Under the pieces are notes generated by a model that saw only the letters and a list, made by a program, of their open reading frames with translations, did not search any database and was not told the DNA's origin. Below, piece by piece: positions 3,432 to 39,046 of a DNA stretch of 42,524 bases (position 1 is its first letter; each line of letters begins with the position of its first letter). The stretch is from an uncultured Dehalococcoidales bacterium. GTDB lineage: Bacteria > Chloroflexota > Dehalococcoidia > Dehalococcoidales > GCA-2688105. Position numbers and translations under genes: made by a program. The stretch spans positions 1 through 42,524 of the forward strand of contig CAZLFC010000002.1 of assembly GCA_964558705.1 (NCBI GenBank), given 5' to 3'.

Positions 3432-4257
3432 TATTGTTGGGATACGTTTCAAAAGGGCTGGCAAAGTGTACTACTTTGACCCGGCGGATATTGAGCTTGA
3501 TACAGGCGATTATGTCGTGGTCAAAACAAGCCGCGGTTTAGAGTTGGGGCAAGTAATTATCTCGCCTAAACAGGTTCTGGCCAGTGAGGTGAACAAGCCG
3601 TTGAAGTCGGTAGTGCGCAAGGCAGAACCCGAGGATATCGAATGCGCCCGGGAACTCGATATAAAAGAGCAAGAGGCTATGGCCGAATGCGGCAAGTTGA
3701 TTACCAAACTACGGCTACCGATGAAGTTGATATCATCTGAATACAATCTTGATGGCAGCCATCTTACCATTTTCTTTAGTGCCGCGGAGAGAGTAGATTT
3801 CCGCGAGTTGGTCCGCGAATTAGCCAACACACTTAAAACACGGGTAGAATTAAGGCAGGTAGGGCCAAGAGATGAAGCCAAGCTGATAGGCGGCTTTGGC
3901 CGGTGCGGGCGCCCGCTATGCTGCATGAACTTCCTGAGTGAGTTTGCGCCGGTGGCTATTAAGATGGCCAAGGACCAGGATTTACCTCTTAACCCGATGA
4001 AGATTTCCGGCATTTGCGGTCGTTTGTTGTGCTGCCTTGTCTACGAGGATGAGTTATACCGCGATATAAAAGCAAAAATGCCCAAGGTTGGACAGCAGGT
4101 ATCCACACCCATGGGAACAGCTAAAGTAGTCGGCATCAATACGCTAAAGGAAAAGATATCGGTGGAACTGGAGAGTGAAGCAATAGTGGAATTACCTCTT
4201 AACGAGATTAACCTTACTGAGGGAAGAGCTTCACCAAAGCCAAAGAAAACGGATTAA
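3424..4257 (+). CDS. yaaT: PSP1-domain protein (YaaT/RicT family)
   Basis: Begins VGIRFKRAGKVYYFD and carries the cysteine-rich CGRPLCC...CGRLLCC motifs typical of PSP1/YaaT. Overlaps the holB end by 8 nt. Confidence 0.9.
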   Translation: MADIVGIRFKRAGKVYYFDPADIELDTGDYVVVKTSRGLELGQVIISPKQVLASEVNKPLKSVVRKAEPEDIECARELDIKEQEAMAECGKLITKLRLPMKLISSEYNLDGSHLTIFFSAAERVDFRELVRELANTLKTRVELRQVGPRDEAKLIGGFGRCGRPLCCMNFLSEFAPVAIKMAKDQDLPLNPMKISGICGRLLCCLVYEDELYRDIKAKMPKVGQQVSTPMGTAKVVGINTLKEKISVELESEAIVELPLNEINLTEGRASPKPKKTD

Positions 4258-4772
4258 GACAGTTTCAACTGAGGCAGATATTTCTGCCAGCCGTTATTGG
4301 TTTTCAGGTACTGATAAGGGATTTGAAACGGCAGGTTGTCGCGCGGGGGAGCGGGGGGATGAGTTAACTCCATTCCAGCCTCGCTGGGAGTTCTACCCGC
4401 CTTGCGGCGGTTACAGGCTATACAGGCGCTGACCACATTTTCCCAGGTGTGTTGACCTCCCCGGTATCTCGGGATTATATGGTCTATAGTAAGTGGCCGA
4501 CTCTCCCGCCCGCAATACTGACAGGTATAGTTGTCACGATGAAAAACCTCAAGGCGAGTTAGCTTTCTGCGGAGCCGGGGACGCTTAATCATACAGGCCA
4601 AGCGGATTACCGAGGGTATCGGGAAACTGTAATTGGATGATTGTATAAAGCCCGTGCCATCTTCCAGCATCTCCGCTCTACCCAGATAAACTAATACTAC
4701 GGCTCGGCGAACGCGGCATACATTAAGCGGCTCATAGTTCTGGTTTAGCACCAGGACAGGCAGATTTACCAT
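4254..4772 (-). CDS. HNH endonuclease (McrA-like, stand-alone)
   Basis: HNH core YTCQYCGR...LTIDHIIPRYRGGQHTWENVVSACIACNRRKAGRTP, plus a conserved-looking N-terminal domain VLVLNQNYEPLNV. Confidence 0.85.
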   Translation of the reverse strand: MVNLPVLVLNQNYEPLNVCRVRRAVVLVYLGRAEMLEDGTGFIQSSNYSFPIPSVIRLACMIKRPRLRRKLTRLEVFHRDNYTCQYCGRESRPLTIDHIIPRYRGGQHTWENVVSACIACNRRKAGRTPSEAGMELTHPPAPPRDNLPFQIPYQYLKTNNGWQKYLPQLKLS

Positions 4773-4806
4773 CTCTGAGGCTTCTCTCTACACACAGACT
4801 GCCTAG

Positions 4807-4835
4807 ATTTTACTAGATGGCAACTAAATATGCAA
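4807..4835 (-). promoter_or_regulatory. Candidate sigma70-type promoter for the HNH gene
   Basis: Read on the minus strand: TTGCAT (4835-4830), 17-nt spacer, TAAAAT (4812-4807), about 35 nt upstream of ATG 4772. Confidence 0.35.
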
Positions 4836-4883
4836 ACTAAAGTCAGGTATCAGTTACTCCTGCCCGACTTTGCAGCCATAACA

Positions 4884-6227
4884 CTATTTTCTGCCGCCGC
4901 GAGAGGTTCTCCTATGACTAGGCCTTAAACTACCACGATAGTCGGGGGCAGTGACATTAAACGGTATACTGATTTTGGGGTCGACCAGCCGGGAACTTAT
5001 GGAACTCTCAATCCCATCCAAGATTTCCTGTAACGAGTAGCGAGTAGTAACCACTGTCGCCAATCGGGCATTATAGCGGTAGTTAACCACCTGGTACAGC
5101 TTTTCCCGCGCCCACGGGGTAGTCGACTGCTCGCCAAAGTCATCCAGTACCAGCAGAGGGGCTGCCTTGACACTCTCAAAAAGCTGGTCATAGGAAACCT
5201 TGCTCTCCGGGCTGAAAGTGGAGCGCAGATGGTCCAGAAACTCGGGCACCACCACAAACAGAGCCGTCTTTTTAGCTTGATAACGATAGTTCACGATAGC
5301 TGCCGCCAGGTGAGTCTTGCCACAGCCCGTCTCGCCCATAAATACCAGCCAGCCCTCGGGCGACTTGGCAAAGTCAAAGGCTAAACGGAATGCCTCCGCC
5401 AGGTTCTCACGCTGCTCCGGCAGCAGGTTGACCCGCTTCCGGTCAAAATTATCAAAGGTCATCGTTTTTTGCAGTTCAAATTCCGGACCCCAGTCATATT
5501 TCAATGATGCCTGTTTCTCCTCTACCACACAGGTGCGACACAAATCAGGGTCGGTCAGACGGGTGCGCATCCTGTCTTCAAGCTTGTCAACAGGGGTTAT
5601 AGTCACAATCACGGTGGGCAGTTCGCCATTAAAGCGATGTGTCAGCAACTGGTCCAGCTTTTCCTTAGCCCATGCGGTGCTAGCCTGAGCGCCCAAATCG
5701 TCCAGAATCAGCAGGGGGGCATTGCGCACCCGCTCAAAGAACTCATCATAAGGCACCTCGCTATCAGGGTTAAAGGCGGCACGCAAGTGGCTCAGGAGGT
5801 CAGGAACGGTAATATAAAATGCCGGGTAGCCACGAGCAATGCGCTCACTAGCAATAGCCGCCGCCAGGTGAGTCTTCCCACAACCACTGGGACCAAACAG
5901 GATTAACCACCCCCTGGGTTCCATAGCAAATGCCCGGACTGCCTCATAAGCCTGCCTGAATTGCTCCTGGCTGGCCGGGGCACCACTTCTTCCCTCCGGA
6001 AGCAGGTCATCAAAGGTAAAACGAGCCAGTGAGCCCAGATTACTGTATCGCTGTAGGCGTTCCTGCTGCTCTTTATTCGATTCTTCCCGGGTACAGCGAC
6101 ACGGTAACGCCTTCCCAAAGTCAGGATGACCTACCGGAACGTCAGCGTAGACAAACCCTGCCCCTTTGCAGATAGAACAGGACGGAACTGACGACTCCGG
6201 TTCCTCAGCGTCTGACCATGTGTCCAT
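4884..6227 (-). CDS. DnaI/DnaC-like helicase loader with two tandem AAA+ modules and an N-terminal zinc motif
   Basis: Two Walker A motifs (GPSGCGKTHLAAAIA, GETGCGKTHLAAAIV) and two Walker B motifs (LLILDDLG, LLVLDDFG). N-terminal CSICKGAG...CRC. I chose ATG 6227 (MDTWSD...) as the start because the longer track ORF (to 6419) runs through the upstream gene's 3' end. Confidence 0.85.
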   Translation of the reverse strand: MDTWSDAEEPESSVPSCSICKGAGFVYADVPVGHPDFGKALPCRCTREESNKEQQERLQRYSNLGSLARFTFDDLLPEGRSGAPASQEQFRQAYEAVRAFAMEPRGWLILFGPSGCGKTHLAAAIASERIARGYPAFYITVPDLLSHLRAAFNPDSEVPYDEFFERVRNAPLLILDDLGAQASTAWAKEKLDQLLTHRFNGELPTVIVTITPVDKLEDRMRTRLTDPDLCRTCVVEEKQASLKYDWGPEFELQKTMTFDNFDRKRVNLLPEQRENLAEAFRLAFDFAKSPEGWLVFMGETGCGKTHLAAAIVNYRYQAKKTALFVVVPEFLDHLRSTFSPESKVSYDQLFESVKAAPLLVLDDFGEQSTTPWAREKLYQVVNYRYNARLATVVTTRYSLQEILDGIESSISSRLVDPKISIPFNVTAPDYRGSLRPSHRRTSRGGRK

Positions 6228-6921
6228 ATTTGCCCTTGATGTATTTATCCGGGTCTGTCTTCTTCGTAGAATCTCGCTTATATGTTCCACTACCCCTGCC
6301 TTCCAATGACCAATTCTCCAGGATTTTAGCAATGTATCTCCAGTTTCTCTTGTTAAGAGATACCGCTTCTCTAACGGCGTCTCTAATCCAATCTGGAGGG
6401 TAAAGCTTTTCTGCCTCACTCAATTCTTCAGCAATCATCGGGGTTAACATACCGATATTCTGTTCATACAGGGTAAAGATGTCGGGCAACTCTTCAAGCT
6501 CAGTATAATCCCGTCCCCCGGCCTGCAAGCCGGGAAGTTGCAGTTCCCCGCTTTGAATTCTAGCTATAACCTGCCTGTTATCCTTGGTATTGAGAAAATA
6601 AATATCCTCGGTTGCCCCGTCTCTATCCATGGCGATATGGAGGATAGTCCCCCGCCTGGTAGCCATCGCCAGCGCCTCACGCAACACCTCATCCGGCGAT
6701 TTGGCTACTTCCTTCAGACCCACCATCAGGCTCTTACTACCCAGAAGCTCGCCATAGGTGATGAAACGAGGATAGCTTCGTTTACGATAAAGTTGCTCAA
6801 AAATATGAAGGGTTGTCTTTAACTCAGCCATATCACTGATTTGCGGCAGCAATGTGCTGAAGAAAAGATTGGGTATGGGAGTAAACTGCATCTTGGCCAG
6901 AAAACCAGCAAACTGCTTCAT
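6205..6921 (-). CDS. DnaD-domain replication/primosome protein
   Basis: N-terminal winged-helix-like region and a C-terminal DnaD-type motif (NWRYIAKILENW). Its ATG overlaps the dnaB stop (ATGA). It overlaps the downstream loader gene by 23 nt. Confidence 0.75.
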   Translation of the reverse strand: MKQFAGFLAKMQFTPIPNLFFSTLLPQISDMAELKTTLHIFEQLYRKRSYPRFITYGELLGSKSLMVGLKEVAKSPDEVLREALAMATRRGTILHIAMDRDGATEDIYFLNTKDNRQVIARIQSGELQLPGLQAGGRDYTELEELPDIFTLYEQNIGMLTPMIAEELSEAEKLYPPDWIRDAVREAVSLNKRNWRYIAKILENWSLEGRGSGTYKRDSTKKTDPDKYIKGKYGHMVRR

Positions 6922-8300
6922 AATAAACTCGGCTCTTGGCTGGTAACCATATTTTCAAATTTAGCTGTTTTGGGTATGAAGCGCAGGTCAATCTCTCCGA
7001 CAGGTCCATTCCTGTGCTTGGCAATGATAATATTGGCGATACCTTCCGGGTAATCTTTATCCGGATGCTGGCTTTCCCATTCCTCTCTGGAGTAATAGAC
7101 ATCATCCCGGTAGATAAACATAACCAGGTCAGCATCCTGTTCAATACTTCCGCTCTCACGCAGGTCAGAAAGCTGGGGTTTATGTGAAGCCCGCCATTCC
7201 ACTGCCCGGCTGAGCTGAGATACCGCTATCACCGGAACATTTAGTTCGCGAGCCAGTGCCTTAAGCGAACGGGAAACATAGCTAATCTCCTGAACCCTGT
7301 TCTCGCCCCTCCCCTCCCCCTGCATTAATTGCAGGTAGTCGACCACCACGAGGTCGATGCCGCGCTCAAAATGGAGGCGGCGAGCCTTGCCACGCATCTC
7401 AACCGCCCTGAGTTGTGGAGAATCGTCAATATATATCAGGGCTTCAGAAAGGATACCGGTGGCATCCATAATTCGCTTTTCTTCATCCTCGTCCTGAAGG
7501 CCGAGGCGAACGCGTCTCAGGTTGACCCCGGATTCAGCAGAAAGAAAGCGCAGTATCAATGACTCTCGTGACATCTCCATGCTGAACAAAGCGACACACG
7601 CTTTCTGCTCAACAGCAGCGTTTCGGGCAATGCTAAGAGCCAGGCTGGTTTTACCCAGGCTGGGTCTGCCAGCCACAATAACCAGGTCGGAGCGCTGAAA
7701 TCCACCCAGAAACTCATCAAGTTTACCGAAACCCGAGAGTGCATAAGGAACCACCCCCTTGTAACCTTCGGCTTCGGCGGTCGTGGCAGGCGTAACCTCA
7801 AAGTATTTGTCCAGTACCTGGCGGATATGTACGAAATCCTGAGAGCCCTGCCCATGGCGCAGTTTAAACAGTATCTCCTCCGCCCGACTAAGGCTGGCGG
7901 CAACATCAGGGTCAGCTTCATGACCAATAGCCGCAATCTGCCCGCCCGCGCTGATGAGACCACGCATTAACGATAAACGGTAGACAATCTGGGCATAGTG
8001 CTCAATATCAAGCGAGGTAGGTACGATTGATATTAGATGTGATAAATAGGCAGCTCCACCACATGACTCCAGCTTTCCCTCTCTGGCAAGCTCCTGAGCT
8101 ACCGTAATTTGATTTATCGCTTCGTTGCGCTGATAGAGCGCCAAACATACGCCATATACCAGTTGAGTTGGTTCATTGTAGAAGTCCGACGGCTGGAGAA
8201 AGACGGCAATTTCATAAATTGCCGTGCCATCTATCAGGAGAGAGCCGACTACAGCTTCCTCGGCATCAATGTCATGTGGCGGCAATTTATCGCCATACAT
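6918..8300 (-). CDS. dnaB: Replicative DNA helicase
   Basis: LPPHDIDAEEAVVGSLL N-terminus, Walker A GRPSLGKTSLAL, Walker B VVVDYLQLM, and SGSIEQDADLV. I preferred ATG 8300 with a GGAGA RBS over the track's TTG 8324. Confidence 0.93.
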   Translation of the reverse strand: MYGDKLPPHDIDAEEAVVGSLLIDGTAIYEIAVFLQPSDFYNEPTQLVYGVCLALYQRNEAINQITVAQELAREGKLESCGGAAYLSHLISIVPTSLDIEHYAQIVYRLSLMRGLISAGGQIAAIGHEADPDVAASLSRAEEILFKLRHGQGSQDFVHIRQVLDKYFEVTPATTAEAEGYKGVVPYALSGFGKLDEFLGGFQRSDLVIVAGRPSLGKTSLALSIARNAAVEQKACVALFSMEMSRESLILRFLSAESGVNLRRVRLGLQDEDEEKRIMDATGILSEALIYIDDSPQLRAVEMRGKARRLHFERGIDLVVVDYLQLMQGEGRGENRVQEISYVSRSLKALARELNVPVIAVSQLSRAVEWRASHKPQLSDLRESGSIEQDADLVMFIYRDDVYYSREEWESQHPDKDYPEGIANIIIAKHRNGPVGEIDLRFIPKTAKFENMVTSQEPSLL

Positions 8301-8301
8301 T

Positions 8302-8745
8302 CTAACCTGTCTCCTGCTCCGCAACTGTTACCTTTATTTTAGGCACTATATCCTTAGCCAACCTAATGGCTATCTCATAACTGCCGAGCTGGTGAATCGG
8401 CTCGTCCAGTTCTATCTTCCTTTTATCAACAGCGATTCCCGTGCTGCTCTCCAGCTCAGTAGCAATATCAGCGCTGGTAATCGAGCCGTGCAGTCGTTCT
8501 TTAGCCCCGGCCCGGGCTGTTAACACAATCTCTTTCCCGTCCAACTGATTGGCTAACTCAGCATACTCCTGCTCGCCTTTGGCTTCCTTACGACGTTGTG
8601 CCTCCACTATACCGGTAGCTTCCGGACTGACCGGCACAACCAGTTTCCGCGGGATAAGAAAGTTACGACCGTAGCCATCCGCCACCTCCTTCACCTCGCC
8701 CGCACTGGCTACCTTCGGTACATCCTTGATAAAGACTACTTTCAT
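8302..8745 (-). CDS. rplI: 50S ribosomal protein L9
   Basis: MKVVFIKDV...GEVKEVADGYGRNFLIPRKLV is the classic L9 N-terminus. It lies upstream of dnaB, as in many bacteria. Confidence 0.95.
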   Translation of the reverse strand: MKVVFIKDVPKVASAGEVKEVADGYGRNFLIPRKLVVPVSPEATGIVEAQRRKEAKGEQEYAELANQLDGKEIVLTARAGAKERLHGSITSADIATELESSTGIAVDKRKIELDEPIHQLGSYEIAIRLAKDIVPKIKVTVAEQETG

Positions 8746-8788: not shown

Positions 8789-9706
8789 TTATTCACTGAT
8801 AAATTGACCGGCGTATATGGCCGCCGTAGCCCCATCTCCCGCCGCCGCTATAACCTGTCGCGGCGAATTATGGCGTATATCGCCGGCGGCAAAAACACCG
8901 GGCACCGCCGTCTCCATCTTTTCATTGGTGATAATATAACCGGCTTCATCCAGCGGTAAAACACCCTTTAGATAGTCGGTATCAGGCTTAAGCCCGATAG
9001 AGACAAAGACCCCATCTATCTCAATGGCAGAGTCCTGGCCTGTTTTCACATTCTTCAGCCTGACTCTCTCCACGGAGTCGCCGCCTTCAATTTCCTCAAT
9101 TACGGTATCCCACAGGAACTCTATTTTGGGCTCAGCGAAGGCTTTTCTCTGTACGACAGGAGTAGCCCGAAGCTCCCGGCGACGGTGTATCACGGTGACC
9201 TTAGAGGCGAATTTAGCCAGGTGGAGAGCCTCGGTAACGGCGGCATTACCGCCTCCGACGACAGCTATCGACTTACCGCGGAAGAAAAAGGCGTCACAGG
9301 TGGCGCAGTAGGACACCCCTCTACCGGTAAACTTCTTCTCCCCGGGTACATTCAGCTTCTGCCGAATGGAGCCACCGGCAATAATCAAGGCCCGGGCAGC
9401 GAAATCGCCGCCGGTGGTCTTGACCACTTTTCGCTCCTTTTTAAGCTCAAGACCGGTAACCTCAGCGGTGATGATTTCCAGCCCGTATTTCGTTGCCTGC
9501 TGACTCATCAGGTTCCCCAACTCAATACCGCCAACGCCATCAGGGAAACCGGGGTAGTTGTCCACCCACTCGGCATTGGCTATCTGTCCACCCACCAGAC
9601 CCTTTTCCACCAGCAGGCTCTTTAGCGCCGCCCTGGCTGTGTAAAGTCCAGCCGTAAGCCCCGCAGGACCGCCACCAATGATAACCACCTCATATTCTTC
9701 AGCCAT
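8789..9706 (-). CDS. trxB: Thioredoxin-disulfide reductase
   Basis: FAD motif GGGPAG, redox-active CATCD, NADPH motif GGGNAA, and C-terminal GD motif. Confidence 0.93.
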   Translation of the reverse strand: MAEEYEVVIIGGGPAGLTAGLYTARAALKSLLVEKGLVGGQIANAEWVDNYPGFPDGVGGIELGNLMSQQATKYGLEIITAEVTGLELKKERKVVKTTGGDFAARALIIAGGSIRQKLNVPGEKKFTGRGVSYCATCDAFFFRGKSIAVVGGGNAAVTEALHLAKFASKVTVIHRRRELRATPVVQRKAFAEPKIEFLWDTVIEEIEGGDSVERVRLKNVKTGQDSAIEIDGVFVSIGLKPDTDYLKGVLPLDEAGYIITNEKMETAVPGVFAAGDIRHNSPRQVIAAAGDGATAAIYAGQFISE

Positions 9707-9740
9707 AATTCAATTCCTCATACCCTCTTTAATTCGTAAT

Positions 9741-10709
9741 TTAGCTCGTGGGGCTTCCCTCCCACAGGTCGCAGCGTCCTCCCCACCGGGCCAGAACCCG
9801 ACCATTAATTGCGAGCTGAGCTATTTCACAGCAGTTGGGACAGGCTTTACACTCGAAGGAAGAGGTATGATAATCTATTTCACTTACGCTAAACCCCTTA
9901 AACTGACTGCCGTTGGTGCTTCTCTCCATCTCCTCGTGCACCAGCAAGGCAGCGCCTATCGCCCCCATAACCTCGTGGTGGGGCAGGACAATAACTTCGG
10001 TATCAAGCTCTTCCTGAATTGCCCTCACTATACCCTGATTAAAGGCAACCCCTCCCTGAAACACTATGGGCGGCTTGATATTCTTGCCCAGACCGACATT
10101 ATTAAGATAGTTACGCACCAACGCCTGGCAAAGTCCGTAGATAATATCCTCAACACGATGCCCCATCTGCTGCTTATGCACCATATCCGATTCGGCAAAG
10201 ACGGTGCAGCGTCCCGCGATACGCACCGATGTATTACTATCCAGCGCCCGCTGTGCAAATTCCTCAATACTCATATTGAGGCGCAGCGCCTGATGGTCAA
10301 GAAAGCTGCCGGTGCCAGCGGCACATACGGTGTTCATACCGAAGTCAACTACCACTCCGTCCCTGATAATGATAATCTTGCTATCCTGTCCCCCAATTTC
10401 AATGATGGTCTGGACTTCAGGCACATATTGCAGGGTAGCCACCGCATGGCTGGTAATCTCATTCTTGACCAGGTCAGCGCCAACGATAACCCCGGTCAGG
10501 TAACGAGCGCTTCCCGTAGTCGCCACACCGCGAATGTAAACATCCCGCGGTAATCGCGACTCTATATGCCTCAGTCCCTGCTGCACCATATCAATCGGCT
10601 TGCCCTGGGTCGGCAAGTAAACATGGGCAACCAGTTCATCACTGTCATCAAGCACCGCCAGCTTGGTGGTTACCGAGCCAACATCTATACCTAAATAAGC
10701 TTCCATCAT
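9741..10709 (-). CDS. BadF/BadG/BcrA/BcrD-type ATPase (HgdC-like [4Fe-4S] activase) with a C-terminal Cys-rich tail
   Basis: ASKHA phosphate-1 motif GIDVGSVTTK. The two cluster-bridging Cys contexts are present (VCAAGTGSFL, RCTVFAESD). Extra CKACPNCC...C tail. Start overlaps the upstream stop (ATGA). Confidence 0.85.
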   Translation of the reverse strand: MMEAYLGIDVGSVTTKLAVLDDSDELVAHVYLPTQGKPIDMVQQGLRHIESRLPRDVYIRGVATTGSARYLTGVIVGADLVKNEITSHAVATLQYVPEVQTIIEIGGQDSKIIIIRDGVVVDFGMNTVCAAGTGSFLDHQALRLNMSIEEFAQRALDSNTSVRIAGRCTVFAESDMVHKQQMGHRVEDIIYGLCQALVRNYLNNVGLGKNIKPPIVFQGGVAFNQGIVRAIQEELDTEVIVLPHHEVMGAIGAALLVHEEMERSTNGSQFKGFSVSEIDYHTSSFECKACPNCCEIAQLAINGRVLARWGGRCDLWEGSPTS

Positions 10710-11803
10710 ACGGCTACCCGCTGTCGTTTATTACCCACTCTTCGCTTGCGTTCCAAGAGGTCAACAAAAGCCTCAAGTCTGGTTAACATGCCAGGCTTGG
10801 CCAGTTGTTCATCACAGAGCATGGTCAGCACCGGGATATTCTCCCTGGTTGACGGCATGATATTTTGTGCCACTATTTCCGGCATACAGGTAAACGGAGC
10901 CAAGTGCACTATACCATCATACTCTTTAGCATGGAGCACCTTTTCTCCCACCGATTCCCAGCCATCACCGCCAACGTCCCGTTTAAGATAAGGTAGCGCT
11001 GCTTTATGAATCTTCTTCGTATCATCTATGCCCAGCGGATTGAGGAACAGGCTGTACTTAACCCAATCCGAGATAAAGGTTCTTCGCCTCACCTCCACCC
11101 CCAGCTTACCCAGCTCATTCTCTACATCCAGGTTAGAGAAGGGCTCCAGCAAAACATAAAACTCTCCGGTAATACCCACTATCAACGGTTGTGCCGAGGT
11201 ATCTCTGGGCACCCGGTTAAGCCGGTCAATGTAGTCTGTTTCCACCTTCCTCAAAGCATCATAATCATCAGTCTGCTCAATGTCCTTAATCGCCTGGTTA
11301 AGTAATTTGCTGGCTGTCCCCTTTTCCAGCTCTACCGCCCTCACCTTCTGCACCAGTCGCTCTATTTTATCCGCAGTACCCAGTTTCGCCACACCAAAGC
11401 GAAAAGCCGAGATAATCTTGGGCCAGCTTTCCCCATTGGTCAACTGCCTTATCGTCTGCAGAAAGCCAAGAAGCTTGTTTTCGGAAATACCGAATTGAAC
11501 CAGCTCGACATCATAGCCCAGGTCATGGAGAATCTGTTTCTGTATCTTGGCGTAGTAGCCCAAACGGCAAATACCGGAGCCGCTCACCATCAGCATAGTG
11601 TCGGCTCCCATCTCAGCCACCTCGATTAGATTACCCAGCGTCAGCTTGAACGGGATACAAAGCCCTTCCGGAGAATACTTGACACCCAGTGATAGAGCCC
11701 GCTGGTTACAGGCCGGTGGTACTATCAACTCACCACCCAGCCTGTCGGCCATGGCCTTAATACCTATATAAAGATTGCCGAGATGAGGCATGCCTACCAG
11801 CAT
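10706..11803 (-). CDS. DUF2229-type protein (activase-associated, BCR/HAD-related component)
   Basis: The motif pattern (GLCIPFKLTLGN, SGICRLGYY, FTCMPEI) resembles the C-terminal domains of large proteins annotated as 'CoA-substrate-specific enzyme activase'. Overlaps neighbours by 10 and 4 nt. Confidence 0.7.
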   Translation of the reverse strand: MLVGMPHLGNLYIGIKAMADRLGGELIVPPACNQRALSLGVKYSPEGLCIPFKLTLGNLIEVAEMGADTMLMVSGSGICRLGYYAKIQKQILHDLGYDVELVQFGISENKLLGFLQTIRQLTNGESWPKIISAFRFGVAKLGTADKIERLVQKVRAVELEKGTASKLLNQAIKDIEQTDDYDALRKVETDYIDRLNRVPRDTSAQPLIVGITGEFYVLLEPFSNLDVENELGKLGVEVRRRTFISDWVKYSLFLNPLGIDDTKKIHKAALPYLKRDVGGDGWESVGEKVLHAKEYDGIVHLAPFTCMPEIVAQNIMPSTRENIPVLTMLCDEQLAKPGMLTRLEAFVDLLERKRRVGNKRQRVAV

Positions 11804-12795
11804 ACTGCCACCTGCTTCCTTTTTCTTATAGCTACCATATCGAGAAATGCTTCCAGTCGGGTGACTACCCCGGTTTCAGCAGTGTGCTCTTCCACGGTAA
11901 GGCTCATAAAAGGTGTGGTCATCAACCGGGCCGACTGCCGCCGCACCATATCCATCATTAAGGAATCGGGGCCGCAACCAAAAGCCATTATGCCGATAAC
12001 ACCGTCAACACCTCTCTCCAGATAATACCCCCCGGCGCCCACTACTTCCTCCTCATAAGTCCAGTGCTCCCGGCTGGTTAAACGAGTGGTGGCTGCTTCC
12101 AGCTCACTTTTAACAATCATCTCCGGCGTAAACACTTGATAATGAGCCTTCTCCAGCCAGTGAACCAGACGATGACTGATATGTTCATCATAAAGGAGAT
12201 ACGGATGACCGATGAGAGCAATAGTTCCCTGAGACAGGCCGTTGGCAAATGTTTCCGGTTCTACCTCAGGTGTGCCCGAGAATCGTTCTATTGCCCGCGG
12301 GGAGGTTAATTTACAGTCGGACATCAACTGCCGATAATCCAAGTGTGCTTGCCAGGCATTCATGCTGGCTTGCCTGATTTTAAAAGGGTCCTTCGTAAAA
12401 TGTCGTCCCAAGCTGTAAATGGACTGGTACAGGGAAGGCTTCCCTTTATTTATATCTATATCCACATCCAGGATAGGAGGGGATTCGGGGATAACCGCCT
12501 TGGTCATATCGGGTAAGCCGAGAAACTTGGAACAGTTGTAAGCCTTTGTTTTCACGCTGCGGATAGCCGGAACAAAAACATAGTCGCACTGCCCTGTCAG
12601 GTGAAGAACATGCCCCAGGAACACCTTTACCGGCAGGCAGGTCTCGGATACCACTCGAGACGAACCTGCGGACAGCATAACCTGCGTGGTTGGCGGTGAG
12701 ACTACCACCTCTGCCCCCATCTGCTCAAAGAAAGTCTGCCACATCGGGTAATACTGGTAATAAAGCAGGGCTCGTGGAATGCCTATTTTAATCAT
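11794..12795 (-). CDS. DUF2229-type protein (activase-associated, BCR/HAD-related component), paralog of 10706..11803
   Basis: Starts IKIGIPRALLYYQYYPMW..., then ETCLPVKVFLGH and GCGPDS. ATGA overlap with the upstream M20 gene. Confidence 0.7.
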   Translation of the reverse strand: MIKIGIPRALLYYQYYPMWQTFFEQMGAEVVVSPPTTQVMLSAGSSRVVSETCLPVKVFLGHVLHLTGQCDYVFVPAIRSVKTKAYNCSKFLGLPDMTKAVIPESPPILDVDIDINKGKPSLYQSIYSLGRHFTKDPFKIRQASMNAWQAHLDYRQLMSDCKLTSPRAIERFSGTPEVEPETFANGLSQGTIALIGHPYLLYDEHISHRLVHWLEKAHYQVFTPEMIVKSELEAATTRLTSREHWTYEEEVVGAGGYYLERGVDGVIGIMAFGCGPDSLMMDMVRRQSARLMTTPFMSLTVEEHTAETGVVTRLEAFLDMVAIRKRKQVAVCW

Positions 12796-13964
12796 TTGCC
12801 TTGTTGAAACTCCCTTTTAACCCTACCAAGTATTTTCGGTTCAGCCACCAAGTCAACGACAGTCATGGCTAGAGCCTTAGCCGCATCAATTAAACCCTTA
12901 ATTCCCGCTGCCGAGGCAGCCGCCTGGGCAAACTGAGGAGAATGAACTATAACCTCCTCCGGAGCTATAGCTATGTGAGGATGGATGCTGGGCACTACCT
13001 GGCTGACATTACCCATATCAGTACTGCCAAAAGTTTTACTGGGGTCGGAGAGCTTAATCCGGCGTCCCAGGGTCTGCATATTTTCCCGGAACTGTCGAGC
13101 TAAGGTCAGGTTATTACGCATCGGAGCATAGCATACCTCTCCCCAGCGATATTCAAGGCGAGCCCCGGTAGCCATAGCCGCGCCTTTGAAGCAATTCAAT
13201 ACCTTTTCTTTAAGCTCATCAAGATAAGTGTAATCCTCAGCACGCACCAGAAAAGTAGCGGCGCTGTGGGCAGGTACCACATTGGCCGCTGCCCCACCAT
13301 CAGTAATAATACCGTGCAGGCGAGCTTTATCCTTAATGTGCTGTCGTAACGCATTAACACCGGCAAAGGACAGGAGCAATGCCTCCAGAGCATTGATGCC
13401 TGCCTCCGGTCGAGCTGCGGAGTGAGCCTCTTTGCCCAAGAACTCGATATACAGGTTCTGGCAGGCAAGAGCGGTGGTGGTAGCCGAATTATGCCCGCCG
13501 GGATGCACCATCATTGCCACGTCCAGATTAGCAAAGGCTCCCCGGTCAACCATCGATACCTTACCGCCGTATATCTCCTCAGCCGGCGTGCCGATAACCA
13601 GTACCGTACCCCCGAACCGGTCAACAGCCAGCTTGGAGGCTACCCCGGCGCCAACCGCACTGGTAGCTATTAAATTATGACCGCAGGCATGACCGAGCCC
13701 GGGCAGGGCATCATACTCAGCCAGAATACCGACGACCGGTTCTCCTTGCCCGTAGCTGGCTCGGAAAGCGGTGGACAACTCACAGATGCCCCGTTCTATA
13801 GAGAAACCCTTCTCCTCCAGATATTGGGTCAACCAGGCTGCTGCCTTATCCTCCTGGAAACCCAGCTCAGGGTTGGCATGAATCTTCAGACTCAGCTCAC
13901 TGAGCTCATGACGGCGAGCTTCTACCTCGTCTATAATCGAAGCCTTTGTTTTTTCTATATCCAA
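12792..13964 (-). CDS. M20-family amidohydrolase/metallopeptidase
   Basis: GHACGHNLI metal-binding motif, GTPAEE, and MVHPG. TTG start at 13964 with a GGGGGGAGAG RBS. Confidence 0.85.
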   Translation of the reverse strand: MDIEKTKASIIDEVEARRHELSELSLKIHANPELGFQEDKAAAWLTQYLEEKGFSIERGICELSTAFRASYGQGEPVVGILAEYDALPGLGHACGHNLIATSAVGAGVASKLAVDRFGGTVLVIGTPAEEIYGGKVSMVDRGAFANLDVAMMVHPGGHNSATTTALACQNLYIEFLGKEAHSAARPEAGINALEALLLSFAGVNALRQHIKDKARLHGIITDGGAAANVVPAHSAATFLVRAEDYTYLDELKEKVLNCFKGAAMATGARLEYRWGEVCYAPMRNNLTLARQFRENMQTLGRRIKLSDPSKTFGSTDMGNVSQVVPSIHPHIAIAPEEVIVHSPQFAQAAASAAGIKGLIDAAKALAMTVVDLVAEPKILGRVKREFQQGK

Positions 13965-14076
13965 ACAGCTCTCCCCCCAAGCTCTGAATTACCACCTATT
14001 ATAGTTTAAGACAACTGGGATTTCTAGGCTTTATCATAAGAACAACCGCAAGAGTTTTCCTTCATATCTGGGAATC

Positions 14077-14130: not shown

Positions 14131-14160
14131 AAGTGGGTTTCGAACCCACTTTTTTGTTGT
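14131..14160 (+). terminator. Intrinsic terminator-like hairpin plus T-tract inside the nusA leader (candidate attenuator)
   Basis: AAGTGGGT-TTCGA-ACCCACTT forms an 8-bp stem, followed directly by the remaining TTTTGTTGT of the T-tract. It lies 43 nt upstream of the nusA ATG. There is no upstream plus-strand gene for it to terminate. Confidence 0.6.
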
Positions 14161-19699: not shown

Positions 19700-20800
19700 T
19701 TGGGTAAGATAAATGTAGCTATAATAGGTGCTGGCAACTGTGCCTCGTCACTGGTCCAAGGCATTCAATTCTACAAGCAAGCCAAAGAAACTGAATTCGT
19801 GCCTGGACTTATGCATGTTAATCTGGGTGGGTATCATATCAGCGACATCAATTTCGTAGCCGCCTTTGATATTGATAAAAACAAGGTCGGTAAAGACCTG
19901 GCCCAGGCAATTTTCACCAAGCCCAATAATACCTTTAAATTTTGCGATGTACCAACCACCGGTGTTAAAGTGCAGCGAGGCATGACCCATGACGGACTCG
20001 GCAAGTACCTGTCGCAAATAATAGAGAAAGCACCCGGCCCCACAGCCGACATAGTCAAAATCCTTAAAGAAACCAAAACCGATATAGTAATTAACTACCT
20101 GCCCGTGGGCAGCGAAGAGGCAACTAAATGGTATATCGAGCAGGTGCTGGAAGCTCACTGCGGCTTGATAAACTGTATCCCGGTTTTTATTGCCCGCGAG
20201 AAGTACTGGCAGGAGCGCTTTGCTGACAAGGGCCTCCCCATTATTGGCGATGATGTAAAATCTCAGGTTGGAGCCACCATAGTTCATCGCGTGCTTACCC
20301 GGCTATTTAGAGACCGCGGGGTTAGATTGGAGAGAACCTACCAATTGAATTTCGGCGGTAATACCGACTTCCTGAACATGTTAGAGCGGGAGCGCCTTGA
20401 ATCCAAGAAGATATCCAAGACTTCCGCCGTTACCTCCCAGTTAGATTATACCTTTGACCCCAATGATATTCATGTAGGTCCCAGTGATTATGTTCCCTGG
20501 CTTGACGACCGCAAGTTCTGCCATATCAAAATGGAGGGACGAACCTTCGGCGATGTCCCCCTGAACCTTGAGCTTAAGCTTGAGGTGTGGGACAGTCCTA
20601 ACTCAGCCGGAGTAGTTATTGATGCTATAAGATGCTGCAAGCTTGGTTTGGACCGGGGATTGAAAGGCTCACTGATAGGCCCTTCTGCCTATTTTATGAA
20701 GTCGCCACCCGTCCAATATTCGGATGATGAAGCCCGCCGAATGGTAGAAGAGTTCATTGTCAGTACCCAGCCAACTGCCGGAGAAAATTCAACTGAGTAA
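19700..20800 (+). CDS. ino1: myo-Inositol-1-phosphate synthase
   Basis: NAD-binding N-terminus [16 protein letters not shown]; the DD-K context [14 protein letters not shown]; [16 protein letters not shown] start after GGAAAGGAGAAG. Confidence 0.88.
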
Positions 20801-20830
20801 ATCTGTAAGGAGGTTCCACGAAAACCGCTT

Positions 20831-21997
20831 ATGAAAATAGCACTGGTCTCCCCTTATGACTTTGCCTACCCGGGCGGTGTAACCAACCATATCTCATCGC
20901 TTTATTACTACCTTTCCCAAATGGGGCATGACGTCAAGGTAATTGCCCCCGCATCTAAGGTAGTCTCCACTTTTGGTGATAGGTTTATACCACTAGGCAG
21001 ACCCCGGTCTATTCCTGCCAGTGGCTCCATTGCTCGTGTTACCATATCAATCAGACTGGGGCCCGCCATTAAAGCCGTGCTCGCTAGTGAGAACTTTGAT
21101 ATTGTCCACCTTCATGAACCCTTTATGCCTATGCTATGCACCACCGTACTCCATCTGTCAAAGACCAAAATGGTAGGTACTTTTCACGCCTTTGCCGGTA
21201 AGCCCGCCTATAATTTTGGCAAACCCCTTACCATCCGACTTCTGAGGAAGTGGTTCCAGAAGCTTGACGGCAAGATTGCCGTGTCCAAACCCGCCATGGA
21301 GTTTGCTAACAAACATCTAACCGGACACTACGATATTATCCCTAACGGAGTTGATTTAAAGCATTTTTCTCCCGATGTGCCCCCAATCGATGAATTCTGT
21401 GATGGAAAACTGAATATTCTTTTTACCGGTCGCCTGGAGAAACGAAAAGGGGTGAACTATCTGCTTAAAGCCTACCAGCGAGTCAAGGAGGAAATCCCTG
21501 ACGCGCGCCTCATCATAGTTGGCCCCGGCACCAGACTGCGCAATAAATATGAGAAACACGTCAGGAAAAATGGTCTAAAGGATGTAGTTTTTACCGGTCA
21601 TGTATCTTATGAGGACCTGCCCAGATATTATAAGACAGCCGACGTTTTCTGTGCCCCGGCTACCGGAAGCGAAAGCTTCGGCATTATCTTACTGGAAGCG
21701 ATGGCTATTGGTAAACCAATCGTTGCCTCCAATATAGACGGCTACGCCAGACTAATAACTCCCGGCGCTGAAGGGCTACTGGTGCCGCCAAGAGATGAGA
21801 AAATGCTAGCCCAGGCACTGGTATCCCTTTTAACTAACGAATCACTCCGGCAAGAGATGGGAGCTAGAGGAATTCTCAAAGCCAAAGAGTACGACTGGAA
21901 ACTTCTTGCCCAACGGATAGTAGATTACTATAACAGCATACTGAATGGGACTCCGTGGGAGGAACAACCAGTGGAATCTGAAGCTATGTCAATCTAA
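20831..21997 (+). CDS. pimA: GT4 glycosyltransferase, PimA-like (phosphatidylinositol alpha-mannosyltransferase candidate)
   Basis: The N-terminus MKIALVSPYDFAYPGGVTNHISSL...GHDVKVIAPAS closely resembles the mycobacterial PimA N-terminus as I recall it. GT4 EX7E region: ESFGIILLEAMAIGKPIVAS. Confidence 0.75.
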   Translation: MKIALVSPYDFAYPGGVTNHISSLYYYLSQMGHDVKVIAPASKVVSTFGDRFIPLGRPRSIPASGSIARVTISIRLGPAIKAVLASENFDIVHLHEPFMPMLCTTVLHLSKTKMVGTFHAFAGKPAYNFGKPLTIRLLRKWFQKLDGKIAVSKPAMEFANKHLTGHYDIIPNGVDLKHFSPDVPPIDEFCDGKLNILFTGRLEKRKGVNYLLKAYQRVKEEIPDARLIIVGPGTRLRNKYEKHVRKNGLKDVVFTGHVSYEDLPRYYKTADVFCAPATGSESFGIILLEAMAIGKPIVASNIDGYARLITPGAEGLLVPPRDEKMLAQALVSLLTNESLRQEMGARGILKAKEYDWKLLAQRIVDYYNSILNGTPWEEQPVESEAMSI

Positions 21998-22047
21998 GTG
22001 AAAACCGATGACAGCTCAGATGGCTTTACTGTAAAAAATAACGTCTA

Positions 22048-22647
22048 ATGACAAAATTATCCGAAATTCGCAAGGCAGCAGGCCATAACTTTGTCCAACC
22101 GGCAGTGCGGTTTCTAGCCAGGACACCGATAACACCTACTACCCTAACCTGGACTGGTTTCTTGCTAGCTGTTGTTGCCGCAGTACTTATTGCCCAAGGA
22201 TACCTTTGGGTCGCCGGGCTAGTGGTGCTTGCTGCCGGTTTCTTCGACCTTCTGGACGGGGCATTAGCCCGATACATCAATCGAACCACCCAGTTTGGTG
22301 CCATCCTTGATTCCACGCTTGACCGCCTATCCGAGGGGGCACTGCTAATCGGCATCCTGGTCTTCTATACCAGAGAACCTTCTACTGTCGGCGTCCTACT
22401 AACCGGCATTGCCCTGCTCGGTTCACTGCTGGTGAGCTATCTCAGAGCCAGAGGAGAAGCGCTGGGGCTGGAATGCCAGGGAGGATTATTCACCCGGCCG
22501 GAGAGGGTCATCGTGCTGGCGCTGGGCCTTTTACTGAGCTACTTCAACTATGCCTTAATTACTGCATTAGGTATCATCGTGATATTTAGTTTTATTACCG
22601 TTGGTCAGAGGTTAGTCCATTTGTGGCGAGAAACAAAGGACAGGTAG
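22048..22647 (+). CDS. CDP-alcohol phosphatidyltransferase (phosphatidylinositol-phosphate synthase candidate)
   Basis: Full family motif D-x2-DG-x2-AR-x8-G-x3-D-x3-D, seen as FDLLDGALARYINRTTQFGAILDSTLDR. About six TM segments. Confidence 0.85.
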   Translation: MTKLSEIRKAAGHNFVQPAVRFLARTPITPTTLTWTGFLLAVVAAVLIAQGYLWVAGLVVLAAGFFDLLDGALARYINRTTQFGAILDSTLDRLSEGALLIGILVFYTREPSTVGVLLTGIALLGSLLVSYLRARGEALGLECQGGLFTRPERVIVLALGLLLSYFNYALITALGIIVIFSFITVGQRLVHLWRETKDR

Positions 22648-32207: not shown

Positions 32208-32250
32208 TTAGCGGCATATCATTTAAATGCCCCGGTTTGGAGGAGGAATA

Positions 32251-33042
32251 GTGATTGAAATAGGCATCAACCCGGTAGCCTTCAGCATAGGCGCCGCCGA
32301 AGTGAGATGGTACGGCATCTTTGTCGCCCTGGCGGTGCTGACCATAGTCCTGTGGATGATAAGACAGCACCGGAAGGGGGCTAAGCTCTCTCCTGACGGT
32401 ATGCTCAATGCCGGACTGGTTGCTATCCCGTCCGGGGTGATAGTATCACGACTGCTCCATGTTGCCGATAGATGGGACTACTACAGCCAGTACCCCGGAC
32501 AGATACTCGGCGCTTCCGGGCTGACCATCTACGGAGCTATTATCGGGGCTACCCTGGGCATCTGGATTTGCAGCAAGTTCAGTAAATTCAACTTCGGTTA
32601 CTTCGCCGATGTGATGGCACCCAGCATCATACTGGCCCAGGCGATAGGCCGGGTAGGCTGTACCATAAACGGCTGCTGCTATGGTATTGAAGCACCCGCC
32701 GGGCTACCGTGGAGCGTAATCTATACCCATCCCGCCAGCTTTGGCCCTATCGGGGTGGCAGTTCATCCCACGCAGGTCTATGAAATCATCTACTGCCTGA
32801 TAGTATTTGGGGTACTACTCGCGCTGAGAGGACGCCTTAAGCCCGACGGTTCACTGTTTATGGTATACCTCGGCCTGTACTCGGCATGGCGTGTCGGCAT
32901 TGGCTTCCTGCGCGAGGGCATGCCTTTACTCTTTAACCTGCACCAGGCACAGTTGTTAGGAATAATTGTACTGCTCGTCGTCGTCGCGCTGCTGGCTTAC
33001 CGGACGCGCTGGGTAAAAGCGGAGAGCCATCAGCAAGCCTAG
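32251..33042 (+). CDS. lgt: Prolipoprotein diacylglyceryl transferase
   Basis: INPVAFSIGAAEVRWYGIF, the GRVGC context, and HPTQVYE. I preferred GTG 32251, which follows GGAGGAGG, over the track's ATG 32227. Confidence 0.9.
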   Translation: MIEIGINPVAFSIGAAEVRWYGIFVALAVLTIVLWMIRQHRKGAKLSPDGMLNAGLVAIPSGVIVSRLLHVADRWDYYSQYPGQILGASGLTIYGAIIGATLGIWICSKFSKFNFGYFADVMAPSIILAQAIGRVGCTINGCCYGIEAPAGLPWSVIYTHPASFGPIGVAVHPTQVYEIIYCLIVFGVLLALRGRLKPDGSLFMVYLGLYSAWRVGIGFLREGMPLLFNLHQAQLLGIIVLLVVVALLAYRTRWVKAESHQQA

Positions 33043-34541: not shown

Positions 34542-34726
34542 CGCTGCACCTCCCGCCACCGGCGGAGAATAATGAAAACACTGGCAACAACCACCGCCGC
34601 CCATATCGTCCAGAACAGGAAGGCACCGCTCATTTTTTCGACATGACTGAGGACATACCAGGGAATAACCACATCCAGCGCCACCAGAAACCCCAGCCAA
34701 ACCCACGCCCAGGTAAATTTAGTCAT
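34538..34726 (-). CDS. Small 2-TM membrane protein, probable symporter accessory subunit (DUF3311-like)
   Basis: 62 aa with two hydrophobic helices. Translationally coupled (ATGA) to the SSF transporter gene. Confidence 0.65.
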   Translation of the reverse strand: MTKFTWAWVWLGFLVALDVVIPWYVLSHVEKMSGAFLFWTIWAAVVVASVFIILRRWREVQR

Positions 34727-34797
34727 ATCCGGTACTCCTTCGTCGCTTTATCAGGCTAACGGCTCGACAAAATCGGCTGTCTTAATAATCAGAGGCA

Positions 34798-34826
34798 ATT
34801 ATATACATTTCAATTACAAATAGCAA
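34798..34826 (-). promoter_or_regulatory. Candidate promoter for the small-subunit/SSF operon
   Basis: Read on the minus strand: TTGCTA (34826-34821), 17-nt spacer, TATAAT (34803-34798). Confidence 0.4.
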
Positions 34827-34861
34827 AAGTGAAAGGTAAAAAGAGGTGCCCCCTGCAAAGC

Positions 34862-37803: not shown

Positions 37804-37838
37804 CCCCACCAAAGCTGAGGTTACCTATTATCCCAAAC

Positions 37839-38192
37839 CTAGAGATACATCTTCTTATTTGTCTGCTGTTTAAACCACTCACGACCATCGTCAACCTTGG
37901 GCAGATCATCCAGTGCCTCTTTGTTATCGTCGATGTATTTCTTACCCTTTTCAGTGAGCCCTACCTGAAGAAGGTATGTAACCCAAGTAAGATAGCCTTT
38001 ATTAACCATTCCTTCCAATATGTCAGCCCACTCCCTGACCTTTTTCTCCGTCCAGAGCATTGGCCCGGCGGCATCCCAATCATCGATTATCTTACGGCAA
38101 TGGTAACCGACACCGCTGCGCTCAATCATGCCTTCCTGGCGCATCGCGTCCATGATGGCCATTTCCATTAATGACAACTTTTCCTCAGCCAT
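37839..38192 (-). CDS. Hypothetical protein, possibly winged-helix-like (117 aa)
   Basis: I chose ATG 38192, preceded by GGGAGGA, over the track's TTG 38231. The segment KGYLTWVTYLLQVGLTEKGKKYI resembles a MarR/PadR-type wing. I recognise no confident family. Confidence 0.55.
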   Translation of the reverse strand: MAEEKLSLMEMAIMDAMRQEGMIERSGVGYHCRKIIDDWDAAGPMLWTEKKVREWADILEGMVNKGYLTWVTYLLQVGLTEKGKKYIDDNKEALDDLPKVDDGREWFKQQTNKKMYL

Positions 38193-38245
38193 AACTAGGC
38201 TAATCCTCCCTTTCAAAAGTTTTCCAGACAATCGCTCAAACTCAA

Positions 38246-38992: not shown

Positions 38993-39046
38993 ATATCAAA
39001 CCTCCTTAATTGAATGTCCCGATTTTATATTATACTTGATTTAACG

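Follow-up and report, generated by a model that had tools for sequence, protein, structure and literature searches.

A three-gene DUF2229-type reductase and activase cassette of Dehalococcoidia as a putative split sister of PlsA/PlsR and Ger

In the superfamily of benzoyl-coenzyme A (CoA) reductases and 2-hydroxyacyl-CoA dehydratases, ATP drives a very low-potential electron into otherwise unreactive carbonyls, and PlsA/PlsR and Ger, whose substrates are glycerolipid esters (PMC13159169, PMC9702350), are its only DUF2229-type members of known function. Ger combines two BcrAD_BadFG domains with DUF2229 and additional small D/H domains, and it 'comprises both plsA and plsR' (PMC13159169; bioRxiv 10.64898/2026.06.23.733905); the BBD architecture (two tandem BcrAD_BadFG domains plus DUF2229) is reported to be conserved in all alkyl-ether producers (PMC13159169). 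Pls is specified by an operon of two genes in Clostridium perfringens and by one gene in facultative anaerobes (PMC12838417, PMC9702350), with the Listeria pls orthologs appearing to be active (PMC9702350). A first-pass annotation of 42,524 nucleotides (nt) of DNA from an uncultured Dehalococcoidales bacterium (contig CAZLFC010000002.1, positions 1 to 42,524; the window) had assigned PlsA/PlsR and Ger to a fused architecture related to that of the reductases and dehydratases, on which the literature (PMC13159169) and our domain scans agree, and had proposed that a group of minus-strand genes in the window could be a split ether-lipid-forming system. Here we describe this group, a cassette of two reductase-like genes (Red1 and Red2) and an activase ATPase gene, preceded by an M20 amidohydrolase gene. 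In its general enzymology the cassette very probably encodes a three-protein, ATP-driven Fe-S radical enzyme and, as judged by sequence comparison, it is a split sister family of PlsA/PlsR/Ger and not an ortholog of them.

The four open reading frames (ORFs) are uninterrupted and run in the order M20 amidohydrolase, Red1, Red2 and HgdC-type ATPase (Table 1). M20 and Red1 overlap by 4 nt at an ATGA junction (12792-12795), Red1 and Red2 by 10 nt (11794-11803), and Red2 and the ATPase by 4 nt at a second ATGA junction (10706-10709), and the sequence confirmed both the ORFs and the overlaps of 4, 10 and 4 nt as they had been annotated. When reference proteins were mapped onto 80 species-level Dehalococcoidia genomes with the cluster, these overlaps were found to be retained, that of M20 and Red1 in 58/70 loci (mostly 4 or 8 nt) and that of Red1 and Red2, at exactly 10 nt, in 67/74. 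As they are conserved across species-level relatives, the overlaps are not due to chance, and the proposal of a single translational unit is supported.

The ATPase matched BcrAD_BadFG (E 2.7e-46) and scored 183.8 against TIGR00241 (cut-off 125.4), and its matches in the PDB were MbdQ (9gai_D, E 2.5e-37, the best), HadI (4eht) and HgdC (1hux), both at E 1e-36, and the homologous reductase (DCCP-R; 7yyl_E, E 2.4e-24) of the double-cubane cluster protein (DCCP). Its VCAAGTG (Cys129) and RCTVFAESD (Cys168) stretches aligned with the same motifs of HadI and MbdQ and both Cys were invariant in 61/61 orthologs, which bears out its annotation as an HgdC-type activase with both Cys contexts. The protein carries an additional C-terminal Cys4 element (Table 1) relative to HgdC and HadI, as the aligned PDB activators (243-276 residues) stop short of this tail, and the element is also present in split Firmicute ATPases. 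Of the Cys4-like tail described in the first-pass annotation, Cys287, Cys290, Cys294 and Cys313 proved to be conserved, but Cys293 of the 'CC' pair was variable. In the PlsA-type proteins of Listeria, Fusobacterium and Collinsella, the linker that leads from the second BcrAD_BadFG domain to the D domain shows the same pattern (C-x2-C-x3-C-x16-18-C).

Red1 covered the whole PF09989 profile (E 1.1e-50) and Red2 matched it weakly, over residues 15-70 only (E 4.5e-7), in keeping with the description of both middle genes as DUF2229-type. By hhalign, Red1 and Red2 are paralogous over their full length (probability 99.7 %, E 3e-27), and the further description of the two genes, as paralogs of domains that large 'activase' proteins carry fused to an ATPase, was likewise upheld. 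The start of Red2 is the upstream ATG, giving an N-terminus (M-x-V-x-x-P-H-x-G) that is conserved out to Firmicutes. Each protein has three invariant Cys, namely Cys53, Cys88 and Cys274 in Red1 and Cys49, Cys79 and Cys306 in Red2. AlphaFold2 models from diverse alignments reached a predicted local distance difference test (pLDDT) of 90.2 for Red1 and 75.4 for Red2, and in Foldseek both matched only the catalytic subunits of 2-hydroxyisocaproyl-CoA dehydratase, DCCP, BzdNO and MbdON (probability 1.0, template modelling (TM) scores 0.5-0.57). The best match of Red1 was HadC (3o3m_B, E 8e-9, TM 0.57), followed by DCCP, MbdON and BzdNO, and that of Red2 was DCCP (7yyl, E 2.5e-8), followed by BzdO and HadC; Red1 and Red2 are thus predicted from their models to have the HgdA/B-type catalytic-subunit fold. 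Cys274 of Red1 lies in a C-terminal Cys-x-Pro stretch (FgCGP) that aligned with QFCQP of DCCP and KFCDP of HadC, and around this motif the Red1 profile reached HadC and DCCP by sequence, DCCP (E 5e-5) being the only PDB protein that it matched at E < 0.001. Single-sequence PDB searches with Red1 and Red2 gave nothing meaningful, so that the dehydratases and DCCP were reached through folds and this one profile alone.

Two variants of the reductase genes were seen. An extra Red2 paralog, 46 % identical to Red2 and with the three Cys retained, sits between Red1 and Red2 in several Dehalococcoidia (locus L001, 8993-10063; also L014, L017, L022, L029, L036 and L070), which suggests that alternative heterodimers may form. 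One unclassified bacterium (locus L095, 6001-7913) has Red1 and the ATPase without Red2, possibly a homodimeric version.

The split arrangement extends well beyond Chloroflexota. A Red1 scan of 1.84 billion cluster representatives (50 % clusters) gave 2693 matches, 473 of them at E ≤ 1e-30. The best 150 comprised 130 stand-alone proteins of 300-399 amino acids (aa) and 11 Red1-Red2 fusions of 600-799 aa (~7 %), and none of these 150 was a protein of at least 1000 aa or a fused BBD protein. Profile searching found the family in many cultured anaerobic Bacillota, e.g. Thermoanaerobacter kivui, Desulfotomaculum nigrificans, Desulfoscipio gibsoniae, Pelotomaculum and Sporotomaculum, and it is also present in Thermoanaerobacter sp. 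X514. The order Red1-Red2-ATPase was repeated in Monoglobus, D. nigrificans, D. gibsoniae and three more contigs, while in T. kivui no ATPase adjoined the Red genes. The core unit is these three genes, and the annotated four-gene unit held for the window but not as a universal core, which is without M20. Database names for the family are generic only ('acyl-CoA dehydratase activase-related protein', 'CoA protein activase'). All screened Bacillota genomes have been reported to contain, besides PlsA/Ger homologs, 'additional PlsA homologs' that have no activation domain and an unclear role (PMC13274423); these are probably the split family.

The modules of PlsA/PlsR (C. perfringens CPE1194/1195; a single fused gene in Listeria and in Enterococcus faecalis, EF1327) and of Ger (Thermotoga maritima Tmari_0479, Desulfatibacillum alkenivorans SHJ90043) correspond one-to-one with those of the cassette. 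Common to both are the BcrAD_BadFG ATPase, the Cys4 element, a DUF2229 D module, a PlsR-like second module and both three-Cys sites, and the two are also alike in a presumed ATP-driven injection of electrons and in being restricted to anaerobes. As references we used PlsA-type proteins from chromosomal records filed as plasmids, from Listeria (1475 aa), Fusobacterium (975 + 404 aa, two genes), Collinsella (1593 aa, with a typical TetR gene upstream), Acetoanaerobium and Paraclostridium; those of Listeria, Fusobacterium, Collinsella and Paraclostridium had two ATPase stretches and DUF2229. The cassette matched the Listeria protein collinearly, with residues 3-317 of the ATPase, tail included, on 317-634 (33 %), Red1 on 669-969 (23 %) and Red2 on 1035-1402 (24 %). 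Against five fused proteins the Red1 profile scored 122-194 bits in the D domain. The Red2 profile matched the stand-alone Fusobacterium PlsR-like protein (E 1.1e-24), with which Red2 shares the same weak N-terminal PF09989 match, and also reached the Listeria, Collinsella and Acetoanaerobium proteins in their C-terminal parts. The Cys triads of Red1 and Red2 were conserved in the PlsA-type D and PlsR parts, except for the Paraclostridium R part.

The cassette also departs from these enzymes. It has one ATPase domain in a gene of its own, whereas PlsA and Ger have two that are tandem and fused, and the gene order is Red1-Red2-ATPase as opposed to ATPase-ATPase-D-R; the window thus lacks the BBD architecture, its BcrAD_BadFG domain being single and on a separate 322-aa protein. 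Identity to PlsA-type modules was 20-24 %, compared with 32-47 % to split-family members of other phyla. In a neighbour-joining tree with 100 bootstraps, in which the Listeria, Fusobacterium and Collinsella proteins stood proxy for C. perfringens PlsA/PlsR and for the Ger of T. maritima and D. alkenivorans, stand-alone Red1 shared a clade with the Red1-Red2 fusions (87/100), separate from a clade of PlsA-type D domains (100/100), and Red2 clustered with split-type Red2, apart from PlsR. The kinship with PlsA-type proteins foreseen in the first-pass annotation therefore stood as collinear homology, but the cassette fell beside their clade and not within it, and with the low identity and the differences at several invariant non-Cys residues a split ether-lipid-forming system was not established.

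These data bear on whether the cassette is truly equivalent in function to PlsA/PlsR or Ger, its three proteins forming the complex of the fused enzyme and converting the ester at sn-1 of membrane glycerolipids to a vinyl or alkyl ether, so that these Dehalococcoidales would be ether-lipid producers; we consider this rather unlikely. The full domain correspondence, the common Cys4 linker and the conserved Cys triads would fit such a role, PlsR is already a separate gene in C. perfringens and Fusobacterium (PMC12838417), which makes further splitting plausible, and an anoxic marine sediment habitat suits oxygen-sensitive Ger-type chemistry (PMC13159169). The separate clades and the 20-24 % identity, with several otherwise invariant residues differing, argue against it, however, as do the absence of the BBD architecture from the nearest cluster representatives (0/150), the departure of the cassette itself from the architecture reported for all alkyl-ether producers (PMC13159169) and the co-occurrence of the activase-less 'additional PlsA homologs' with PlsA/Ger homologs in Bacillota (PMC13274423). 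Our literature search found no relevant report of plasmalogens or ether lipids in Dehalococcoidia, or of a 'CoA-substrate-specific enzyme activase' in this class.

The gene order in relatives offers a closer link to lipids than does the window itself. Immediately 3' of the ATPase, 51/61 Dehalococcoidia species genomes have plsX, overlapping the ATPase by 4 nt in 17/51 and otherwise mostly spaced by 12-21 nt, and 35 of the 51 plsX loci also carry a thioredoxin gene (trx), which overlaps plsX in 35/35. Both neighbours scored above cut-off as true PlsX (TIGR00182) and true thioredoxin (TIGR01068), and the plsX adjacency persisted in a rearranged locus (L085). Neither plsX nor trx was found anywhere in the 42.5-kb window, where a 34-nt gap (9707-9740) takes their place (compare L001, 12145-13459), and trxB immediately 3' of the ATPase, as in the window, was seen in 6/61. 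The window lineage has moved or lost plsX and trx, and the window is a minority, reduced version of an M20-cassette-plsX-trx-trxB operon-like string. In nearly all relatives trxB comes after the cassette, usually behind plsX and trx and together with rplI and dnaB, and this conserved synteny makes for a putative functional link only; its annotated position downstream on the same strand was correct, but the spacing is 34 nt and not 35 nt. A canonical NADPH thioredoxin reductase has a potential far too positive to reduce the activase, and the adjacency also fits the rplI-dnaB synteny, so that trxB was rejected as the activase electron donor. M20, plsX, trx and trxB are Dehalococcoidia-specific operon neighbours outside the core.

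Through its place right behind the ATPase in 51/61 related genomes, plsX is a better lipid link than the lipid genes of the window, and it would also suit a PlsA-equivalent role. The homology to the sole characterised DUF2229 enzymes, together with this coupling, leads us to favour, by analogy, the acyl carbonyl of a lipid or lipid precursor as the substrate; a role as an ether-lipid or acyl-lipid reductase is plausible on these grounds, although held with less than even confidence. A more specific version, for which the odds are long, is that the cassette and PlsX reduce an acyl-phosphate, acyl-acyl carrier protein (acyl-ACP) or nascent glycerolipid for ether-linked (or aldehyde/alcohol-derived) lipids in marine subsurface Dehalococcoidia, which would constitute a second, split and mechanistically distinct ether-lipid route.

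The substrate could instead be soluble and not a lipid (an acyl-CoA, a 2-hydroxyacyl-type amino-acid-derived compound or a small molecule), as in the dehydratases, benzoyl-CoA reductases and DCCP, with plsX a mere matter of synteny in streamlined genomes. The 2-hydroxyacyl-CoA dehydratases (HgdAB/HgdC, HadBC/HadI) resemble the cassette in pairing a homodimeric activase with a heterodimer of paralogous [4Fe-4S] subunits, HadC being the nearest solved fold for Red1, but Red1 gave only 19.9 bits against Pfam HGD-D (PF06050; threshold 28.4), over its C-terminal 60 residues, Red2 gave no match, HadB/C were not matched by single-sequence search, and the cassette is without CoA-metabolism partner genes. 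Class I benzoyl-CoA reductases (BcrABCD, BzdNOPQ, MbdONPQ) share the fold of the catalytic pair and the ATPase type, but have two different ATPase subunits and catalytic-subunit identities of just 10-14 %, and no aromatic-degradation genes lie near the cassette. DCCP of Carboxydothermus hydrogenoformans (PDB 6eno, 7yyl), the top structural match of Red2, was reportedly described in 2018 as a homodimer with an [8Fe-9S] cluster and six Cys per chain, whereas the cassette has two different subunits with three invariant Cys each, and the alignment of ligands to DCCP spanned the C-terminal Cys only.

That the top structural matches are HadBC, DCCP, BzdNO and MbdON, that the Red1 profile reaches DCCP and that the TRLEAF-type C-terminal motif is nearer to DCCP and HadC than to PlsA are all in favour of such a soluble substrate. 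The Firmicute contexts point the same way: cassette neighbours outside Dehalococcoidia were unrelated housekeeping genes, with no lipid genes, and included the amino-acid genes TrpB2, lysA, dapF and an LL-diaminopimelate (LL-DAP) aminotransferase gene, three Peptococcaceae-type genomes having the order spoVAE, a GerA-family gene, the cassette and a TrpB2 gene, with lysA next in two. The amidohydrolase coupled upstream in Dehalococcoidia would also be compatible. Set against this, no CoA-transferase, CoA-ligase or acyl-CoA dehydrogenase gene was present in or beside the cassette in the contexts seen, the Cys4 element (which the aligned PDB dehydratase and reductase activators lack) and DUF2229 are common to the lipid-acting PlsA-type proteins, and the plsX adjacency outlasts local rearrangement. 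We regard a non-lipid substrate as doubtful in itself, yet about as likely as a lipid one, because of the lack of lipid neighbours outside Dehalococcoidia and the dehydratase- and DCCP-like C-terminal motif.

M20 scored 219.9 against TIGR01891 (cut-off 153.75), contained an M20_dimer domain and was similar to HmrA over its full length (3ram, E 2.8e-81), with an identical metal-site motif (GLGHACGHN). It lay immediately 5' of Red1 in 66/74 Dehalococcoidia loci, but the cassette was retained without it in the Dehalococcoidales loci L003, L004, L011 and L073, and no M20 gene was found in the Firmicute contexts examined. M20 was accordingly rejected as a core component and is a dispensable partner, frequent only in Dehalococcoidia. 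A working part in the pathway, in which M20 would free or remove an amide-linked moiety (e.g. of an N-acyl amino acid or amide-linked lipid) before or after the radical step, seems improbable: its intact active-site motif, its position and its frequent overlap with Red1 would allow for one, but its absence from those four loci and from every Firmicute cassette examined would not, and unrelated genes often overlap in these genomes. Thermoanaerobacter wiegelii and relatives, of a genus with the split family, make dimethyl-acetal-yielding plasmalogens, 1-hydroxy fatty alcohols and amide-linked N-glyceroyl alkylamines (PMC13274423 and its supplement), and these reduced-acyl and amide lipids could, by analogy, be candidate products of a reductase plus an amidohydrolase.

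From these comparisons we infer the following mechanism. The 322-aa ATPase would act as a homodimer in which Cys129 and Cys168 of the two chains hold a single [4Fe-4S] cluster, with a ferredoxin or flavodoxin encoded elsewhere as its reductant. By hydrolysing ATP it would then push one low-potential electron into a heterodimer of Red1 and Red2, whose subunits are each predicted to carry a [4Fe-4S] cluster on three invariant Cys with one iron left free. This open iron would bind the carbonyl or hydroxyl oxygen of the substrate, which could then be reduced through a ketyl radical and/or dehydrated. Because it occupies the ATPase-reductase linker position of the fused enzymes, the Cys4 tail probably serves to dock the activase onto Red1, in place of their covalent linker.

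We tentatively put forward as the best explanation, at somewhat under even odds, that the cassette belongs to the DUF2229 (PlsA-like) branch of the superfamily as a split sister of PlsA/PlsR/Ger, with the acyl carbonyl of a lipid or lipid precursor as the likeliest class of substrate. Several observations weigh against this. Residues that are invariant in the split family differ systematically in PlsA/PlsR (K90, H304 and E315 of Red1; H7, E46, K53, E309, E332 and E344 of Red2), which suggests a different substrate or chemistry, and the coexistence of the additional PlsA homologs with PlsA/Ger argues against simple redundancy. The seven contexts examined outside Dehalococcoidia held no lipid genes, the Red2 model is of low confidence at residues 253-291, and our literature search returned no lipid data for these uncultured organisms. 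Housekeeping genes make up the whole minus-strand string that runs from M20 past dnaB, and clearly unrelated genes also overlap (plsX-trx in 35/35 loci; nusA-ylxR and the DnaB_2 gene-dnaB pair in the window), so that in such compact genomes coupling is weak evidence of a common function. The cassette may also be, as the first-pass annotation had allowed, an uncharacterised ATP-driven reductase or dehydratase.

Table 1. Positions of the cassette genes and of associated features in the window
Feature	Positions	Strand	Basis
Red1, 333 aa, predicted DUF2229 catalytic subunit, counterpart of the PlsA/Ger D domain	11794..12795	-	PF09989, fold, invariant Cys
Red2, 365 aa, divergent Red1 paralog, putative PlsR counterpart	10706..11803	-	PF09989 (partial), hhalign, fold, invariant Cys
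ATPase, 322 aa, HgdC/HadI/BcrAD-type activase, predicted cluster ligands Cys129 and Cys168	9741..10709	-	BcrAD_BadFG, TIGR00241
C-terminal Cys4 element of the ATPase, Cys287-x2-Cys290-x3-Cys294-x18-Cys313	9771..9851	-	invariant in 61/61 orthologs
M20 amidohydrolase, 390 aa, TTG start, HmrA/PM20D2-like, Dehalococcoidia-specific accessory partner	12792..13964	-	Peptidase_M20, TIGR01891
trxB, canonical thioredoxin-disulfide reductase, 34 nt 3' of the ATPase	8789..9706	-	TIGR01292 377.4, cut-off 343.45
Sigma-70-like promoter match TAGAAA-17-TATAAT, 5' of M20	13998..14026	-	10/12 consensus positions; consensus match alone
Shine-Dalgarno-like GGGGGGAGAG, just 5' of the M20 TTG start	13969..13978	-	direct sequence reading

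The region upstream of M20 holds the sole good promoter-like site. No minus-strand terminator-like sites were found in the gaps from M20 through trxB, that between ATPase and trxB included, while two such matches sit within the ATPase and trxB coding regions, and the string of genes in the same direction runs on through trxB, rplI, dnaB and more replication genes. Three metatranscriptomes of the same study yielded short contigs only (e.g. a 268-nt piece within Red1), nearly all of them at 90-95 % identity and apparently derived from related strains, and no transcript was defined from them. The Rfam scan of the whole window returned zero RNA families.

Judging by the source names of close homologs, the window comes from an uncultured Dehalococcoidales bacterium; it is a housekeeping region, and its DNA was detected almost only in metagenomes of marine sediment and subsurface. 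A terminator-like hairpin (AAGTGGGTTTCGAACCCACTT plus T-run; 14131-14151, plus strand) lies 52 nt 5' of the nusA start (14203), and an AGTGGG...CCCACT stem with a T-run was present about 50-65 nt 5' of nusA in 38/39 related Dehalococcoidia loci, with a conserved stem and a variable loop; it matched no Rfam family and may act as an attenuator in the leader of the nusA-ylxR-infB operon. Three consecutive genes at 19700-22647 (plus strand) code for myo-inositol-1-phosphate synthase, a GT4 glycosyltransferase and a CDP-alcohol phosphatidyltransferase; the first two are syntenic in L003, and the set looks like a pathway for phosphatidylinositol or glycosylated-phosphatidylinositol head groups. Further lipid-related genes, in separate operons, are lgt (32.2 kb) and a fabF-like one (36.5 kb). 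The first-pass annotation had cited such lipid genes elsewhere in the window in favour of an ether-lipid system; this argument is weak and we rejected it, since the lipid genes (those for the inositol-phosphate synthase, the glycosyltransferase and the CDP-alcohol transferase, lgt and the fabF-like gene) belong to other transcription units at a distance of 6-25 kb.

The stretch at 36544-42163 (minus strand) encodes a 422-aa FabF-like beta-ketoacyl synthase, a putative redox protein of the C_GCAxxG_C_C type and a protein with two family III CoA-transferase stretches that, at 1038 aa, is unusually long. At 4254-8324 (minus strand) an HNH endonuclease gene ends the replication string of dnaB, a DnaB_2-domain gene and a gene for a 511-aa IstB/DnaC-like ATPase with apparently two ATPase stretches, an arrangement also seen in L003. 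G+C content is 0.53-0.56 at about 30000-36000, compared with 0.48-0.52 elsewhere, and this part contains lgt, recJ and the genes of a sodium:solute symporter and of an MrfA-type helicase that carries a Zn-binding domain.

What is new here is a large uncharacterised sister family (473 clusters, E ≤ 1e-30) of the PlsA/PlsR and Ger enzymes, encoded as a self-contained three-gene cassette that, in the Dehalococcoidia, a dominant group of anoxic marine sediments, shares an operon-like string with plsX. PlsA/PlsR and Ger, as makers of ether lipids, blur the 'lipid divide' between bacteria and archaea, and the Ger/PlsA screens that serve to assign the producers of sedimentary ether lipids and of proxies of the branched glycerol dialkyl glycerol tetraether (brGDGT) type usually demand long fused matches, and so may miss or mislabel the cassette. 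Should the substrate not be a lipid, the cassette would still represent a new ATP-dependent radical enzyme that is widespread in anaerobes. If the PlsX-linked reduction of acyl groups were true, one of the most abundant groups of subseafloor bacteria would be a source of non-isoprenoid ether lipids in anoxic sediments.

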